Assembly: GCA_030669585.1 (NCBI GenBank)
Contig: DAOVDI010000001.1
Span: 994 to 64,993, forward strand
Origin: Acidobacteriota bacterium
GTDB lineage: Bacteria; Acidobacteriota; Aminicenantia; Aminicenantales; Aminicenantaceae
DNA length: 64,000 nucleotides
Direction: 5' to 3'
The notes under the pieces were generated by a model, which was given only the letters and a program-made list of their open reading frames with translations, was not told the origin of the DNA and searched no databases. Position numbers and translations under genes: made by a program. Position 1 is the stretch's first letter. Each line of letters opens with the position of its first letter. Shown one piece after another: positions 2,165 through 48,392 of the stretch.

Positions 2165-2216
2165 ACTGGATTATATATAAGAAGTTATGTTAGGTTATCG
2201 GCAGTTTTTATGAATA
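2165..2216 (+). repeat. 52-bp perfect direct repeat, copy 1. It is part of a tandem duplication of about 312 bp.
   Basis: actggattatatataagaagttatgttaggttatcggcagtttttatgaata is identical to 2477-2528. The similarity extends about 40 bp further upstream as a near-match. Confidence 0.9.
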
Positions 2217-2229
2217 GCGCAACTAACCT

Positions 2230-2350
2230 GGATTATTCACGGGTCGAGATTGGTGCAGATGTAAGGCATGGCGGGTGAAGCTGTGGTTATCCACCGCAAA
2301 CCCGTCATAACGCAGCAGATGTGCCGAGATTCGGCCCGCCTGAAAGGGAA
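2230..2350. ncRNA. Structured-RNA-like repeat module, copy A. Candidate ncRNA, function unknown.
   Basis: Shares an outer stem (CGGGTCGAGATT / AAGATCGGCCCG) and an inner stem-loop around GTGAAGCTGT with the copies at 46888-47005 and 47078-47182. Stems differ between copies by compensatory substitutions. Confidence 0.35.
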
Positions 2351-2476
2351 AAAATGCCGATAATAAAAATAGTATTAAAGGATTCGAGGGGTCGAGTGAA
2401 AAGAAAAAATATAAGAGTTTAATTAAAAGCACTTGAATCCTTGGACCCTTGAATCCTCGAACCCTTTGCTTCAAAT

Positions 2477-2528
2477 ACTGGATTATATATAAGAAGTTAT
2501 GTTAGGTTATCGGCAGTTTTTATGAATA
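2477..2528 (+). repeat. 52-bp perfect direct repeat, copy 2
   Basis: Identical to 2165-2216. Confidence 0.9.
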
Positions 2529-2542
2529 AAGCAGGATAGATA

Positions 2543-4267
2543 TTGCGGAGAAAGAACATGGAAAAAGAAAAAACAGAAAATAACGACAGCAAAACCCTGG
2601 ATTTTATCCGCACCATTGTCGAAGAAGATATTAAAAGCAGAAAACACAACTGCCGTATCCATACACGGTTCCCTCCCGAACCCAACGGGTATCTTCATAT
2701 CGGCCATGCCAAATCTATCTGCTTGAACTTCGGGATCGCAGCCGAGTATAAAGGGCTGTGCAATCTGCGTTTTGACGACACCAATCCCACTAAAGAAGAA
2801 ATTGAATATGTGGATTCCATAAAAAAGGATATTCGCTGGCTTGGTTTTGATTGGGCTGACAGAGAATATTATGCATCCGATTATTACTAGCAGCTTTACG
2901 AATTTGCTCTCAGGCTCATTAAAAAAGGCAAGGCTTATGTATGCGATCTGAGTGCGGATGAGATCAGAAAGACCCGTGGAACTTTAACAAAACCCGGGAC
3001 GGACAGTCCCTTTCGAAACCGCCCGGTCGAGGAAAATTTGGACCTCTTCAAAAGAATGAAGTCCGGGGAGTTCCCAGACGGCAGCCGTACGCTTCGGGCC
3101 AGGATCGATATGGCCTCTCCGAATCTCAACATGCGCGACCCTGTGATCTACCGGATCCTGAGAGCCACACACCACCGCACCAAAGACACCTGGTGCATCT
3201 ATCCCATGTACGATTATGCCCATCCTGTCTCTGATTCTCTGGAAAAGATCACCCATTCTCTATGCACCCTGGAGTTTGAAGACCACAGGCCCATATATAA
3301 CTGGTTCCTCGAAGAACTGGATATTTTTCGCTCCAGACAGATAGAGTTCGCGCGCCTCAACCTCACTTACACCATAATGAGCAAGCGAAAACTGCTTGAA
3401 CTGGTTAACCATGGATTCGTCAGCGGATGGGATGACCCGCGGATGCCGACCATATCCGGCCTGCGGCGGCGGGGATATTCACCAGCCGCCATCCGCGAAT
3501 TTTGCAAACGCATCGGTCTGGCCAAGCGGGAAAGTATGGTGGAGATCTCCCTTCTGGAATACTGTCTCCGGGAGGATATGAACAAACACGCACCCCGTAT
3601 TATGGCTGTTCTTCAGCCCCTGAAAGTGATCATTGACAACTATCCAGAAGACCGCGTTGAATGGCTGGATGCAGAAAATAATCCCGAAGACTCTTCCATG
3701 GGATCAAGAAAGCTGCCGTTCTCCCGGACCGTTTATATCGAGCAGGAGGATTTTCGCGAGGACCCGCCGAAAAAATTTTTCCGTCTGGCCCCCCGCCGCG
3801 AGATCCGGTTGAAACACGCCTATTACATCAAATGTGAAAAAGTGGTCAAGGATGAAAAAACCGGGGAAATCATTGAACTTCACTGCACCTATGACCCAAA
3901 ATCCCGGGGCGGATGGACAAATGACGGCCGGAAAGTACGTGGCACTTCACACTGGGTCTCTGCTGCGCACGCACTGCCTGCAGAAGTGCGGCTTTATACC
4001 CACCTGTTTATAAAAAAGGACACAGGAGAAGTGGAAGATGGAAAAGACTTTAAGGACTACATTAATCCCGAATCCCTTGAAATATTAAGAGATTGTCTGG
4101 TCGAACCCAGTCTGAAAGACGCTGAAACGGGAACAAAATACCAATTTCTCCGGCAGGGCTATTTCTGCGTTGACCCAGACTCCTCCAAAGATAAACTTGT
4201 GTTCAACAGGACTGTAACACTTAGAGACACCTGGGCAAAAATTCAAAGATCCATGTGTCTTTTTTGA
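2543..4267 (+). CDS. glnS: Glutaminyl-tRNA synthetase, interrupted by a single in-frame TAG at 2888-2890. Both flanks are in the same frame. It is either a pseudogene, an assembly error or a suppressed stop.
   Basis: ORFs 2543..2890 and 3038..4267 are in the same frame. Together they span a full-length GlnRS carrying the HIGH motif (PNGYLHIGH) and a well-conserved catalytic and anticodon-binding body. The TAG aligns with the Asp of E. coli ...SDYFDQLH... (ours ...SDYY*QLYEF...). Confidence 0.85.
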
Positions 4268-35194: not shown

Positions 35195-37092
35195 AAAAAG
35201 ACCAAGAGAACGAAGAAGAACTCTCACCCCAAGATTACGAAAAACTGCTCGATCAATACCAATTTGATGTCAAAGAATTGACACCGGGAAGCCTGGTCAA
35301 GGGAAAAATCGTTAAAATTACAGAGGCGTATGTTCTGGTCGACATCGGCTTCAAGTCAGAAGGGATCATTCCCCTCGAGGAATTCGGCCTTCCCGAAGAA
35401 AGAGACGAGATCAACGCTGGAGACGAGATCGAGGCGGTCCTGGTAAAATCAGACCATAAAGAAGGCTATCTGATCCTGTCTAAAAAGAGGGCCGCGGCAA
35501 ATCGCGCCCTGGGAAACCTGGAAAAAGCCTATCATACAAAAAGCTGGATCATCGGTAAGATCGATGAAAAGATCAGGAACGGCTATATTGTCGATGTGGG
35601 TATAAAGACATTTATGCCCGATTCTCATGCAGATGTGAAAATAGTCAAAGACCCCAGCATACTTATCGGCAACCGATATAAATTCAAGGTTATTAAATTC
35701 GACCGCAAGAGTGAAAACGCCATGCTTTCACGCAAACTGTTCCTTCAGGATGAACATGAAAAGAAAAAGCAGCAAGTTTACGAACAGCTCCGCAAAGGCA
35801 TCACACTGAAGGGCACTATCAAAAGCCTGACAAATTTCGGAGCGTTTGTGGATATCGGAGGCGTTGAAGGGCTTCTTCACATCTCGGATATGTCCTGGGG
35901 AAAGATCGGTCACCCCTCTGAGCTTTTTAAGACCGGACAGGAGATCGAAGTCATTGTGTTGAACTTTCACGAAAAAGAGGACAGGATATCGCTCGGCTAT
36001 AAACAGCTGACCTCCAACCCATGGGATACAATCTTTGAAAGATATATCGAAGGTCAAAAACTTCTTGGAAAAGTCGTCAGCCTGACGGATTTCGGCGCTT
36101 TTGTGGAACTTGAAAAGGGTGTTGAGGGCCTGGTCCATATATCAGACCTGACCTGGTCCCGAAAATTGATCCATCCCAAAAAGGTGCTCTCCATCGGGGA
36201 AGAAGTGTTGGTGACTATCCTTTCCCTCAACCCGGAAACAAAAAGAATCTCTTTAGGGCTCAAGCAGAGCTCGCCCCATCCATTAGAGGAGTTCCGCCAG
36301 AAATACAGCCCTGGTTCCCGTGTTTCAGGAAAGATTACCAGTATCACGGATTTCGGCGCTTTTCTTGAAGTCGATAAAGGAATCGAAGGGCTTATTCACA
36401 TCTCGGATATCAGCTGGAAAAGAATCAAACATCCTTCTTCCGTCCTCAAGGTTGGAGATGAAACCGATGCTATCATCCTGAGCATCGATGTGGACAAACA
36501 GAAACTTTCTCTGGGCATTAAACAGCTCGAAGGCGATATATGGGAGGATTTTTTCACCCGCCAAAAAGTCGGAGACCTGGTAAATGTCAAGATCATCCGA
36601 ATCGCTGATTTTGGAGTATTCGTAGAAATCACTCCGGGGATCGAAGGTGTTGTTTTTCTCTCCGAGCTGGATGAGCAGAAGATCGATAACCCAGCAGAAG
36701 TCTTTAAAGTGGGAGACGAAAAACTGGCTAAAATCCTCAAACTGAGCCAGCAGGATAAAAAGATCTCTCTCAGTTTCAGGCAAGGACAGCTCGATACTCA
36801 AAAAATCGAATACCAGAAGTATTCCAACAGTCAAGAGAGCACATTAACCCTGGGAGATCTCATGAAAGACCAGCTCGGGAACCTTGAAACCTCTATTAAA
36901 AAGAACGCCTCTAAAAAAGAAACAAAGAAAGAAACAACAAAAAAGCCTATTAAAAAGGCAAAAAAAGAAAATAAGGGAAAAGACACAAAAAAAGAAATTA
37001 AGAAGACAACAACAACAAAACCAAAAAAAGAAACAAAAAAGGATAGCAAAAAAGAAATTAAGAAGAAGGAGGATAAAGGTGATAAAAGCTGA
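35182..37092 (+). CDS. rpsA: 30S ribosomal protein S1 with six S1 domains plus a roughly 70-aa lysine/threonine-rich low-complexity C-terminal tail
   Basis: Repeated S1-domain motifs (FGAFVDIGGVEGLLHISD and similar, six times). The tail reads KKETKKETTKKPIKKAKKENKGKDTKKEIKK.... Confidence 0.9.
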   Translation: MSELKKDQENEEELSPQDYEKLLDQYQFDVKELTPGSLVKGKIVKITEAYVLVDIGFKSEGIIPLEEFGLPEERDEINAGDEIEAVLVKSDHKEGYLILSKKRAAANRALGNLEKAYHTKSWIIGKIDEKIRNGYIVDVGIKTFMPDSHADVKIVKDPSILIGNRYKFKVIKFDRKSENAMLSRKLFLQDEHEKKKQQVYEQLRKGITLKGTIKSLTNFGAFVDIGGVEGLLHISDMSWGKIGHPSELFKTGQEIEVIVLNFHEKEDRISLGYKQLTSNPWDTIFERYIEGQKLLGKVVSLTDFGAFVELEKGVEGLVHISDLTWSRKLIHPKKVLSIGEEVLVTILSLNPETKRISLGLKQSSPHPLEEFRQKYSPGSRVSGKITSITDFGAFLEVDKGIEGLIHISDISWKRIKHPSSVLKVGDETDAIILSIDVDKQKLSLGIKQLEGDIWEDFFTRQKVGDLVNVKIIRIADFGVFVEITPGIEGVVFLSELDEQKIDNPAEVFKVGDEKLAKILKLSQQDKKISLSFRQGQLDTQKIEYQKYSNSQESTLTLGDLMKDQLGNLETSIKKNASKKETKKETTKKPIKKAKKENKGKDTKKEIKKTTTTKPKKETKKDSKKEIKKKEDKGDKS

Positions 37093-45513: not shown

Positions 45514-46731
45514 ATGAAAAAAATCGCCTTATTGCTTTCAATCTTAATTCCGCTGTTTCTCCCTTTAAATGCCACTGATATCCTTTTGATAGGGGACGAG
45601 GAAGGAGAGGGCAAGCTGCTCATGCCCTCCCGGATCGAGGAAGGCCCGGACAGCAACATTTATATCTACGACCAGATGGATTCCCAGATCAAGGTTTTTT
45701 CCCCGGATGGAAAATACTTAAGAAAGATCGGGGGCAAAGGCCAGGGCCCTGGCGAGATCCAGCGTGCAGACGGGTTATCTTTTGGTTTCACTCCGGACGG
45801 AAACCTGTATTTCACAGAATATTTTCAAGGCCATCCCTGGATGACGTTTATGGAGTTATCTGGAACATTTATCAAGGCGTTGAAGTATGATAAGAATAGA
45901 TTTTTCGGCGTCTGGGATGCCGCTCCCCTTCCGGATGGCCGCTTTCTGATCGAATTTCATTACACAGGCAGGCCGGAAAAAAAGAAGGATTATTTCTTCC
46001 ACAGTTCTCCCACTGAACTCACTGTTATCGACTCTTCCGGAAAGCTCCATTCCAGGATCAAAAGCACAAAGCATTTTACCCGGATCTCATTTATGGATTC
46101 AGGCGCTGATTCTCCCATCCCCTTTACCCCTCGCTTTCTCTGGTGCCCATTTAAAATGGGAACGGTTCTATTTTCAGAAGGGCTCAGCACAAAACTTCAG
46201 GTCTATGATTATAATGGAAAACTGGTCAATGAAATTGACACTCCTCTGCCAAAACCGGAAAAAGTCACAGGAAAACATCTGAGCCAATGGCGCGAGGAAA
46301 GGAAGGAAATGATGCGGTCCCGGAATGTTAACTGGTACAACCGGTTCGGCAAAGTCATCGAAAAATACAAAAAATCCATCCACAAGGTGAAACCCAATCT
46401 CTCCGGTTTATCCTTCACACCAGATGGAAATATACTGTTGGCAGGTCAAGGAAATGAAGAAACCCGGTCAACTAAATACTGGCTTCTCGATGAAAAGGGG
46501 CAAACGCTTACCAGGATCAATACAGCGGCTATGGGGATAAAAATATCTCCACAATTTATATTTTTCGGCACAGTGGATGAGGATTATATTATCAAGACCT
46601 ATGCCCTGAAACGACAGGGAGACGAGGCTTCAGACCTCAAACAGGTAGAAGTTTATTTAACCAGGAAAAACAGTCTATCGAAGTCTATTGAGGTCCATAG
46701 AAGTCTATCGAAGTCAAAAAGAGTTTGTTGA
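45514..46731 (+). CDS. Six-bladed beta-propeller lipoprotein-like hypothetical protein. The last roughly 20 codons are encoded by a decamer repeat array.
   Basis: Signal peptide and beta-propeller-like repeats. The C-terminus (...NSLSKSIEVHRSLSKSKRVC) is translated from the 10-bp array at 46671-46720. Confidence 0.55.
   Translation: MKKIALLLSILIPLFLPLNATDILLIGDEEGEGKLLMPSRIEEGPDSNIYIYDQMDSQIKVFSPDGKYLRKIGGKGQGPGEIQRADGLSFGFTPDGNLYFTEYFQGHPWMTFMELSGTFIKALKYDKNRFFGVWDAAPLPDGRFLIEFHYTGRPEKKKDYFFHSSPTELTVIDSSGKLHSRIKSTKHFTRISFMDSGADSPIPFTPRFLWCPFKMGTVLFSEGLSTKLQVYDYNGKLVNEIDTPLPKPEKVTGKHLSQWREERKEMMRSRNVNWYNRFGKVIEKYKKSIHKVKPNLSGLSFTPDGNILLAGQGNEETRSTKYWLLDEKGQTLTRINTAAMGIKISPQFIFFGTVDEDYIIKTYALKRQGDEASDLKQVEVYLTRKNSLSKSIEVHRSLSKSKRVC
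46671..46720. repeat. Tandem array of five 10-bp units, consensus RAGTCYATNG (copy 3)
   Basis: cagtctatcg/aagtctattg/aggtccatag/aagtctatcg/aagtcaaaaa. Confidence 0.8.
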
Positions 46732-46739
46732 GTTTATTG

Positions 46740-46815
46740 GGTTCATTGTGTTCTTTGAGTTATTTTAATTAGATTTAACTCAATAAACCCAATAAGCTCA
46801 ATGAGCTCAAAGAAC
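46740..46815. repeat. Long imperfect dyad of the mosaic repeat family, with about 30-bp arms around TTTTAATTAGATTT
   Basis: tttattgggttcattgtgttctttgagtta...taactcaataaacccaataagctcaatgagctcaaagaac. There is a homologue at 1970-2040 and fragments at 63965-64000. Confidence 0.6.
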
Positions 46816-46818
46816 TGG

Positions 46819-46838
46819 ATTCCCGTTTACACGGGAAT
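46819..46838. repeat. Hairpin module ATTCCCGT-TTAC-ACGGGAAT
   Basis: Same module as 2041-2060 with one loop difference. Confidence 0.7.
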
Positions 46839-46887
46839 GACGAGACAAACGAGATGTACGATTTTATGAATCATTCAGAATCCCTGG

Positions 46888-47005
46888 ATGATTCACGGGT
46901 CGAGATTGCCGTAGCTGCGAGAAGTGGTTCGTGAAGCTGTATTTATATACTGCGAACGGAACACGACGAAGCCACTGCGGTAAGATCGGCCCGCCCGAAG
47001 GGTAA
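46888..47005. ncRNA. Structured-RNA-like repeat module, copy B1
   Basis: Homologous to 2230-2350. Outer stem CGGGTCGAGATT/AAGATCGGCCCG, inner GTTCG-...-CGAAC. Confidence 0.35.
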
Positions 47006-47077
47006 AAAGATAGAAAGAGAGGGTTCAAGGATTCGAGTGTTTTTATTGTGTCCCATTGAATTGAGTGCCTGGACTAT

Positions 47078-47182
47078 TTACGATTCGAGGTTGATGCATC
47101 TGCAAGAGGCTGTTCGTGAAGCCGTATTTATATACTGCGAACGGACAGCAACGCAGCAGATGGGATAAGATCGGCTCGTAAA
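47078..47182. ncRNA. Structured-RNA-like repeat module, copy B2
   Basis: The outer stem shows a compensatory change relative to B1 (CGATT.../...GGCTCG versus CGGGT.../...GGCCCG). Confidence 0.35.
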
Positions 47183-47191
47183 TTGTTCAGG

Positions 47192-48319
47192 CTACCCTGA
47201 ATTATTCAGGATGTTGTAGGCCCAGTCGATCCATTGACATATAGCCTCAATATCAGACGTCTCGATCGTAGCGCCGCACCAGAATCGAAGACCCGGAGGA
47301 GCATCCCGGTAAGCTCCGCAGTCATTGGCCACTTCTTCCTCGGCCAGTAGTTTCACCATCTCTTTCACTTTTTCCGCAGGCAAATCCACGGTAAAGCATA
47401 CACTGGTATTGGAACGGATATCTTTGCTTTCCGCCAGAAAATCGATCCAGTCATGAGACGCGACAAAATCCTCAAATGCAGCCAGGTTGGCATTGCTGCG
47501 TTTGATCAGTCCCTGGAGCCCGCCGACCGATTCTGTCCATTTTAAAGCAGCCAGATAATCCTCGTTGGCCAGCATGGATGGCGTATTGATGGTAGAGCCC
47601 TTGAAGATCCCTTCATTCAACTTTCCGCCCTTGGTCATCCGGAAGATCTTGGGCATGGGCCAGGGAGGCGCATAGGATTCAAGACGCTCCACTGCTCTCG
47701 GAGACAGGATCAGAATACCATGGGCCGCTTCTCCTCCCAGAACCTTCTGCCAGGAGTAGGTGATCACATCCAGTTTCTCATAGGGGATATCCATGGCGAA
47801 TACCGCGGATGTGGCATCACATAGAGTTAGACCCTCACGGTTATCCGGGATCCAGTCACCGTTGGGAAGCTTGACCCCGCTGGTAGTTCCATTCCAGACG
47901 AAAACAATATCATTGGTAAAATCAGCCTGGGAAAGATCGGGAAGCTTCCCGTAATCCGCACTGAAAACCCGGACACTGTCCAGCTTAAGCTGCTTCTCGA
48001 TATCGGTTGCCCACCCTTTGGAAAAGGATTCCCAGACAAACACATCCACACCTCTGGGACCGAGAAGGGACCATATGGCCATCTCAAAAGCGCCGGTATC
48101 AGAGGCCGGGACAATACCGACCCGGTAATTGTCAGGAAGGCCCAGTATCTTTTTTGTTTTATCAATAGCCTCGGCCAATTTTCCTTTCCCAAGACTGCTC
48201 CGGTGAGAGCGGCCCAGAGGCGCATCTTTTAACTCATCCAGGGAATATCCCGGGTGTTTGGCGCATGGCCCGGACGAAAAATTCGGACAATCGGGCTTTA
48301 TATCAGGTTTAGGTTTCAT
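47192..48319 (-). CDS. serC: Phosphoserine aminotransferase (class V aminotransferase, about 370-aa type)
   Basis: N-terminal NFSSGPC, similar to the SerC N-terminus. 375 aa. Confidence 0.65.
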
Positions 48320-48392
48320 GACATTCTCCTCACAATATGAATAATCCAGAGTAACACAGAAAAAACCGAATTATCAATAAAAAGAACAACGC

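Follow-up and report, generated by a model that had tools for sequence, protein, structure and literature searches.

The window analysed here, 64,000 nt of DNA from an Acidobacteriota bacterium (Aminicenantaceae; GCA_030669585.1, contig DAOVDI010000001.1, positions 994 to 64,993 of the forward strand), carries a repeated module with pairing stems, and the question that it raises is whether this module is a structured RNA in its own right or part of a larger object. Three copies had been proposed by the first-pass annotation, and all three were recovered at those places as matches to a covariance model (R1) built from relatives. Copies A, B1 and B2 were located at 2224-2354, 46880-47009 and 47065-47194, all on the + strand, with R1 bit scores of 130.7, 140.6 and 120.6, and no fourth copy was found when the 64 kb window was scanned with this model. 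The mean column identity of the three copies is 78%. Copy A is placed upstream of glnS; B1 and B2 are both directed towards the 3' end of serC.

The + strand of each copy was predicted to fold as RNA into one long imperfect hairpin (H1), with minimum free energies of -55.7, -48.8 and -45.2 kcal/mol for A, B1 and B2 respectively. Comparison of these + strand RNA folds with dinucleotide shuffles gave z values of -5.95, -5.16 and -6.14; the complementary strands of A and B1 folded no better than shuffles (z about -0.5).

Compensatory covariation, which had been claimed from the three copies, was borne out overall by 52 genomic and 112 metagenomic copies and is far stronger than three copies could show. 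In the 52 genomic copies 93% of cells are paired, compared to 29-45% when the partners are slid, and both sides have changed in 17 of the 36 pairs. The 112 distinct metagenomic copies, among the matches listed, have 94% of cells paired and both sides changed in 32 of 36 pairs. The covariation score of these 112 listed copies was 0.466, compared to 0.21 shuffled and <0.1 slid, a large margin even though the alignment was fitted to the covariance model, which favours the structure somewhat. The two helices originally offered as examples fared differently. The outer helix CGGGTCGAG / (T)TCGGCCCG does pair, and in B2 one of its pairs is compensatory (G-C to A-U), with a U.C mismatch at the neighbouring position. 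The inner-helix example, GCGG/CCGC in A set against GTTCG/CGAAC in B, was out of register and compared columns that are not homologous. The GC...GC of GAAGC/GCGAA forms an invariant 2-bp helix in the consensus, and the covarying helix sits below it as GGCGGGU/ACCCGUC(A) in A and GGUUCGU/ACGGAAC in B.

The type of wobble pair retained in the stems gives the polarity of the selected strand. Overall there are 270 G.U cells compared to 19 A.C cells (14:1), and 67 compared to 9 in 15 non-redundant representatives, an excess which indicates that the selected object is the + strand as a single strand. The many G.U pairs used by the fold are weak in DNA, making RNA the likelier selected form. With DNA folding parameters copy A gave a z of -1.8, which is not significant, and helices P1 and P2 were lost; this weak fold favours RNA over single-stranded DNA, though not decisively. 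On these folding models the balance lies towards RNA as the form in which H1 would be selected.

The unpaired purines of H1 are highly conserved. They make up internal loops of GA/GA type, a GAA/GA loop below the invariant GC helix, and AAG / AACgAA loops. K-turn and sarcin-ricin internal loops were considered by inspection and rejected, as the loop sizes and sequences (GAA/GA, GA/GA) fit neither consensus. The module had also been described as no recognised riboswitch, ribozyme or retron ncRNA, and the covariance-model scan agrees: Rfam 15 (4227 families, among them the self-cleaving ribozymes and the HEARO/IscB and IS605-orfB RNAs) gave zero matches with the window copies, either at the gathering threshold or at E<=10, and none with diverse variants at E<=0.1.

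In every copy H1 starts 13 nt inside a left terminal inverted repeat (LTIR), and the same 13-mer precedes H1 in all members of the family. The elements are bounded by 13-bp TIRs, CCTGGATTATTCA ... TGAATAATYCAGG, and fall into size classes of about 125, 185 and 250 bp. TIRs were found at both ends of 111 complete elements, and subfamilies change both TIRs together (e.g. CTGCTTT.../...AAAGCAG). The long form has the order LTIR, H1, a small hairpin (H2), an inner inverted repeat (IRa, AAAAAATGCCGAT), a variable centre, a second inner inverted repeat (IRb, ATCGGCAnTTTTT) and the right TIR (RTIR). LTIR and IRa mirror IRb and RTIR, so that the left arm is interrupted by H1 and H2. IRa and IRb covary between lineages; a switch between the GCCGAT after H2 and the ATCGGC in the 3' arm of P1 was rejected because IRa covaries with the far-end IRb and not with P1. 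The minimal form consists of LTIR, H1 and RTIR. B2 belongs here, and its RTIR pairs with its LTIR, giving a longer hairpin (minimal 124-bp form). Across lineages, conservation covers H1 and the arms but not the centre and is higher in H1 than elsewhere in the element; H2 varies in sequence with its hairpin kept (CCCGGAGGG, CCTTTAGG, CCCCCTTGGGG). Element length ranges from 120 to 320 bp, with no conserved ORF and no coding capacity of its own; a small ORF from an ATG in IRa was rejected as a candidate, being open in a few copies only and unconserved.

The complete element of copy A spans 2227-2535 (309 bp) and is bracketed by an 86-nt direct repeat (2136-2221 / 2448-2533, 93% identity, repeat family D5). 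The upstream 86-nt repeat represents the right side of a remnant element, placing copy A within a partial tandem of elements. The features of the window copies are listed in the table.

Table. Element features at copies A, B1 and B2 and related TIR sequences in the window
Feature	Position	Strand	Basis or remark
Upstream element remnant, partial right arm (IRb and degenerate RTIR)	2195..2221	+	repeat analysis, D5
Copy A LTIR CCTGGATTATTCA	2227..2239	+	sequence; CTAA (2223-2226) directly before
Copy A hairpin H1, helices P1-P5 with purine-rich internal loops between	2240..2338	+	RNA fold, covariance model, covariation
Copy A small hairpin H2 CCTGAAAGGG	2339..2348	+	hairpin kept across lineages, sequence varies
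Copy A inner inverted repeat IRa AAAAAATGCCGATAA	2349..2363	+	complementary to IRb 2507-2521
Copy A variable centre with nested heptamer-repeat hairpin	2364..2506	+	poorly conserved between lineages
Copy A inner inverted repeat IRb TTATCGGCAGTTTTT	2507..2521	+	sequence
Copy A RTIR TGAATAAAGCAGG, then ATAG	2523..2535	+	TIR search
B1 LTIR CCTGGATGATTCA	46883..46895	+	sequence
B1 hairpin H1	46896..46993	+	RNA fold, covariance model; missing from L060 spacer
B1 hairpin H2 CCCGAAGGG	46994..47002	+	no IRa after H2; nearest RTIR-like sequence 47198-47210
B2 LTIR CCTGGACTATTTA	47068..47080	+	sequence
B2 hairpin H1	47081..47178	+	RNA fold, covariance model
B2 RTIR TAAATTGTTCAGG	47179..47191	+	abuts serC stop codon (CTA, 47192-47194)
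LTIR/RTIR palindrome CCTGAATTATTCAGG, arms adjoining with nothing between	47196..47210	.	encodes SerC end LNNSG
Solo TIR motif CTGGATTATTCA	48338..48350	-	~25 nt upstream of serC start codon

The copies include chimeras between subtypes, truncations and nested insertions, and 110-nt short variants are also among the covariance-model matches in the genome loci. Extra insertions, or a cut-off within the 3' half of H1, were seen at L064 5520-5659, L072 770-1080, L141, L142 and L147. One MAG (CAZLBV01) contains head-to-tail arrays of LTIR plus H1 with a period of ~132 nt (L013 5332-5744, L051 2436-2843, L016 1-438 and L007 3108-3529), in which H2, IRa and the right arm follow the last unit only. 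The composite of B1 and B2, a long-type copy with a minimal copy ~185 nt further on, is also present at L001 7006-7335 and L012 4352-4663, and the recurrence of this pair at loci unrelated to that in the window (46880-47194) suggests that it moves or recombines as a unit.

Several other features were observed close to the window copies. The solo TIR at 48338-48350 stands immediately before the serC Shine-Dalgarno sequence, and the right TIR of copy A is similarly near the glnS start. The SerC tail ..ILNNSG* is encoded by the TIR-TIR palindrome; in the relatives compared (L058 and L059) one SerC ends ..TLNDS* inside an element arm and the element-free one ends ..ELKNRPE*, and from these sequences an element insertion appears to have replaced the SerC C-terminus in frame. 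The glutaminyl-tRNA synthetase gene (2543-4267, +) contains an in-frame TAG at 2888-2890 (..YASDYY*QLYEF..), which might be read through, mark a pseudogene or stem from an error in the assembly. A second palindromic repeat family of ~120 bp occurs at 1945-2064 and 46722-46842, with 30-bp arms that each contain a small hairpin (TTCCCRC...GYGGGAA) beside CCAGTT/AACTGG and a centre of 9-nt units; in L060 a further palindrome is nested in one of the small hairpins. Tandem 10-nt units (GTCTATAGAA-like) are found at 1750-1925 and 46663-46730, the latter block forming the last codons of a DUF5128-like ORF (45514-46731). Heptamer-repeat hairpins (CTTGAATCC / TCGAACCC and their complements) lie in or beside elements at 2099-2160, 2378-2470 and 47024-47042, and an A-rich low-complexity block at 36903-37081 was reported by the repeat finder as 9 overlapping copies.

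The flanks of the 111 complete elements were compared for evidence of insertion. Identical flanking 4-mers were found at 33 of the 111 elements, compared to 6.2 +/- 2.3 expected from shuffled partners, and flanking 2-, 3- and 5-mers were at chance. The consensus of this 4-bp target-site duplication (TSD) is YTAR, with TTAA (9), CTAG (8), CTAA (4) and TTAG (4) among the forms counted. Identical flanks that are not palindromic (CTAA/CTAA, TTAG/TTAG, TTAT/TTAT) indicate a direct duplication and not an extended inverted repeat. A TA duplication, following an IS630-like model, was rejected because the 2-mers are at chance and the 4-mers are not. An orthologous empty site was identified in L181, where one ATAA stands at the position of TTAG-element-CTAG in L150, and in this one orthologous pair the filled L150 equals the empty L181 plus the element and 4 bp. 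A second candidate locus, at the GNAT gene beside copy A, was set aside as the relatives have a Lon-like neighbour or the contig ends at the repeat. Perfect TSDs are absent at the window copies, A having CTAA/ATAG and B2 having AGTG/CTAC; the left flank of B2 is conserved, which places B2 within a larger composite repeat.

Presence and absence of copies was also seen between relatives in the spacer between serC and the DUF5128 gene. This spacer contains B1 and B2 in the window, B2 only in L060, other copies in L058 and none in L059, where SerC is 96%, 90% and 88% identical to that of the window respectively. L060, the closest relative in the comparison, is missing B1.

The genome pattern scan, with one genome per species, gave 57 loci, one of them a chance pattern match in a Gammaproteobacteria MAG (L019) that was rejected as it lies inside an ORF without TIR or fold. 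Most of the genome loci belong to MAGs with the label Aminicenantes, Aminicenantales, Aminicenantaceae or Acidobacteriota, and two MAGs carry the label 'Eubacteriales'. About 40 of the 57 come from one MAG labelled 'uncultured bacterium', which has many matches at contig ends and shares 95.6% identity with the window across 1.7 kb. Homologues of SerC and GNAT likewise assign the window to Aminicenantes. The covariance model gave 95 matches in the genome loci, with dozens of copies per MAG, and the metagenome scan gave at least 120 loci. There were zero matches in viral contigs, plasmids and phages, and no paper linking Aminicenantes with MITEs was found in the literature.

The copies are intergenic, 159 of 174 overlapping no ORF of >=100 aa. 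No recurrent neighbour gene was found, the neighbours being unrelated housekeeping genes, and the 174 copies have no orientation bias (same/opposite 79/77 for the upstream gene and 65/63 for the downstream gene). A riboswitch or 5'-leader, as the position of copy A before glnS might suggest, was rejected because B1 and B2 face the serC 3' end and the copies show no orientation preference. A replication-strand bias was likewise rejected, as orientation relative to GC skew was 29:13 in the genome set and 27:28 in the metagenome set and so did not replicate. No sigma-70-like promoter, intrinsic terminator or U-tract after H1 was found at the copies, although the sigma-70 consensus may not be that of this phylum.

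A mobilising partner was looked for in the DNA flanking the copies, ~1.1 Mb in all and reaching about 4-10 kb from them. This DNA contained no autonomous element and no multi-copy ORF, and no transposase adjoined any copy. Among TIR pairs 0.5-4 kb apart with matching flanks, none bracketed an ORF with a TSD. A phmmer search with E. coli InsH gave zero matches to an IS5-like protein at E<=10 among 2051 ORFs from the ~1.1 Mb. YTAR is the TSD motif of IS5 (PMC10359306). The likeness to IS5 (IS5 family, IS5 group) consists of this 4-bp duplication, which the elements here also make; the IS5 ends GGAAGGTGCGAA are unlike the element LTIR CCTGGATTATTCA. The IS1380 family, to which ISEcp1 belongs, makes 4-5-bp duplications and has ends that start with CC. 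When the IRL of ISEcp1, CCTAGATTCTACGT (PMC6061673), is set against the LTIR extended by one base (CCTGGATTATTCAC), 9 of 14 positions agree, a short similarity that may serve as a lead. ISEcp1 duplications are 5-bp and AT-rich compared to 4-bp here, and no IS1380-like transposase was found in the flanking DNA.

Rare variants within eight subfamilies were used to examine how individual insertions change, although the counts are small. Rare variants per site were 1.45% in stems compared to 1.64% in loops, and rare stem changes were to G.U in 14 cases and to A.C in 13. Differences between subfamilies are overwhelmingly compensatory or wobble. The combination of neutral rare variants with compensatory subfamily differences suggests that single insertions are left to drift, the fold being retained in those lineages that go on propagating. 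Elements with both TIRs but without H1 number 2-8 compared to 124 with H1, a comparison biased by the H1-based sampling.

Considered together, the TIRs, the TSD and the empty site identify the element as very probably a MITE, and this MITE family is previously undescribed. H1 is probably the conserved inner module of this non-autonomous Aminicenantes transposon, and it may be cis-acting at the RNA level. The first-pass annotation had itself allowed that the copies might be simply the termini of a decayed IS or MITE. The MITE part of that alternative is correct, whereas 'simply' a terminus is not, since the hairpin is internal to the TIRs and conserved better than the rest.

The main alternative takes H1 to be left over from the 5' leader of an autonomous parent's transposase mRNA, with the fold selected in the parent, where it might for example hide a ribosome-binding site or block read-through, and with MITE subfamilies arising repeatedly by internal deletion and then decaying. 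H1 does lie immediately inside the left end and points inward like IS leaders, and H2 is often GGAGGG with ATG, GTG or TTG 6-7 nt further on. Neutral decay of copies beside compensatory subfamily differences would also fit selection elsewhere. Against this alternative, ~230 H1 copies drawn from many populations include not one with a transposase or a recurrent ORF after it. The ATG is moreover unconserved, GC-rich lineages carrying AAAAACGCCGG, and it falls in IRa, which is mirrored by and covaries with IRb at the other end; the short ORFs from it are unconserved and the minimal 125-bp elements retain H1 alone. A leader relic is considered unlikely.

Adoption by the host, in which the hairpin would serve in neighbouring mRNAs as a stabiliser, a processing site (e.g. 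for RNase III) or a terminator, has precedents in the Correia, ERIC and BOX repeats as RNA-active host-exapted elements. The RNA fold of H1 is very stable and some copies lie directly after stop codons (B2 at serC and several type-3 copies), an adjacency that follows from the TAA or TAG within the YTAR target. The 174 copies have no orientation bias even though one strand alone folds well, and the rare variants do not avoid stems; this lack of bias and the neutral decay disfavour host exaptation, and no U-tract follows H1. Such a role appears improbable for the family.

The original proposal of a structured-RNA or ribozyme family stands with respect to a strand-specific conserved structure, and fails with respect to a stand-alone RNA or ribozyme gene. 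A free-standing structured ncRNA or self-cleaving ribozyme gene family in many copies would display the strong covariation, conserved unpaired purines and strand specificity of H1, but H1 is always within TIRs with a TSD, promoter and terminator were not found at the copies, and no Rfam or ribozyme match was obtained at permissive thresholds. Chimeric and truncated copies are common and single copies decay neutrally, leaving this explanation very improbable. Least probable of all is a single-stranded DNA hairpin element moved by an HUH (Y1) enzyme, of REPIN/RAYT type or derived from IS200/IS605, with a 5' motif and hairpin recognised on one DNA strand and RAYT/TnpA cleaving the + strand at CCTGGATT: the hairpin of one strand, preceded on its 5' side by a conserved linear motif, the mosaic and tandem arrangements that recall BIMEs and the compensatory changes known from REPINs would suit it, but TIRs and a true 4-bp TSD are not products of HUH transposition, DNA parameters give a weak fold, the GC-skew orientation bias (29:13 in genomes, 27:28 in metagenomes) was not replicated and no Y1 gene was noticed within about 4-10 kb of the copies.

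For H1 as the inner module of a MITE, the following mechanism is proposed. A DDE-type transposase encoded elsewhere would cut at the TIRs and integrate the element with a 4-bp stagger; its target choice would be nearest to that of IS5, and the CC-starting end recalls ISEcp1 as a lead. H1 would be selected as a single strand of one polarity, with RNA the likelier form, and its fold would be maintained in propagating lineages and not by the host at each insertion. H1 may then be a cis-acting RNA-level module that makes the element a successful propagator, although a direct action of H1 in the element's own propagation is put forward tentatively, the case being close to evenly balanced. Only 13 nt precede H1 within the element, so a promoter for the + strand would have to lie in the flanking DNA. 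It is doubtful, though conceivable, that H1 is a functional RNA needed for the spread of a DDE-type MITE, either as a transposase RNA cofactor or cis-RNA, or as a protecting or licensing RNA. To our knowledge DDE cut-and-paste or copy-paste transposition has no need for an internal RNA hairpin. If H1 were such an RNA, this would be a cut- or copy-and-paste family with an RNA-dependent step, outside the RNA-guided IS200/IS605, IS110 and CAST systems.

In Aminicenantes, which are uncultured and abundant in sediments, the family accounts for much of the unusual repeat content between genes and probably for many breaks between contigs, and its boundaries, target motif and covariance model can be used for masking and annotating these repeats. 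The results also give a caution that covariation of textbook quality can sit in a transposon, where selection appears to act on propagating lineages and not on a host RNA gene. As a MITE the element is of an ordinary kind and is unusual in one feature, a wobble-rich, strand-specific 100-nt hairpin with conserved purine loops. If transposition turned out to require this hairpin as an RNA, RNA would take part in DNA transposition in a way of a new kind.

When the family is compared with known bacterial repeats, there is a close resemblance in organisation to MITEs mobilised by DDE transposases, such as Correia/CREE of Neisseria, RUP of pneumococci and Nezha of cyanobacteria. These are likewise short, non-coding and intergenic, with dozens of copies, TIRs, a short TSD, presence or absence between strains, nested or chimeric copies and the possibility of a whole-element hairpin. 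One obvious difference is that the best-conserved part of the elements described here is the internal 100-nt hairpin and not the inverted repeat, with 32 of 36 pairs covarying, G.U outnumbering A.C by 14:1 and purine-rich internal loops that are conserved. The TSD here is also the 4-bp YTAR rather than TA, and the autonomous partner was not found in the flanking DNA. REPINs with RAYT are similar in being intergenic hairpins of ~100 nt with compensatory changes and element-level selection, and reach hundreds of copies; however, they are without a TSD and tied to a single-copy RAYT gene, while the elements here have a 4-bp TSD and TIRs. BOX and ERIC are, like this family, modular and mosaic intergenic repeats that form stable RNA structures. 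Where studied, BOX and ERIC act on host transcripts in an orientation-dependent manner, whereas the copies here have no orientation bias, and, unlike BOX and ERIC, their boundaries and TSD are those of a transposon.
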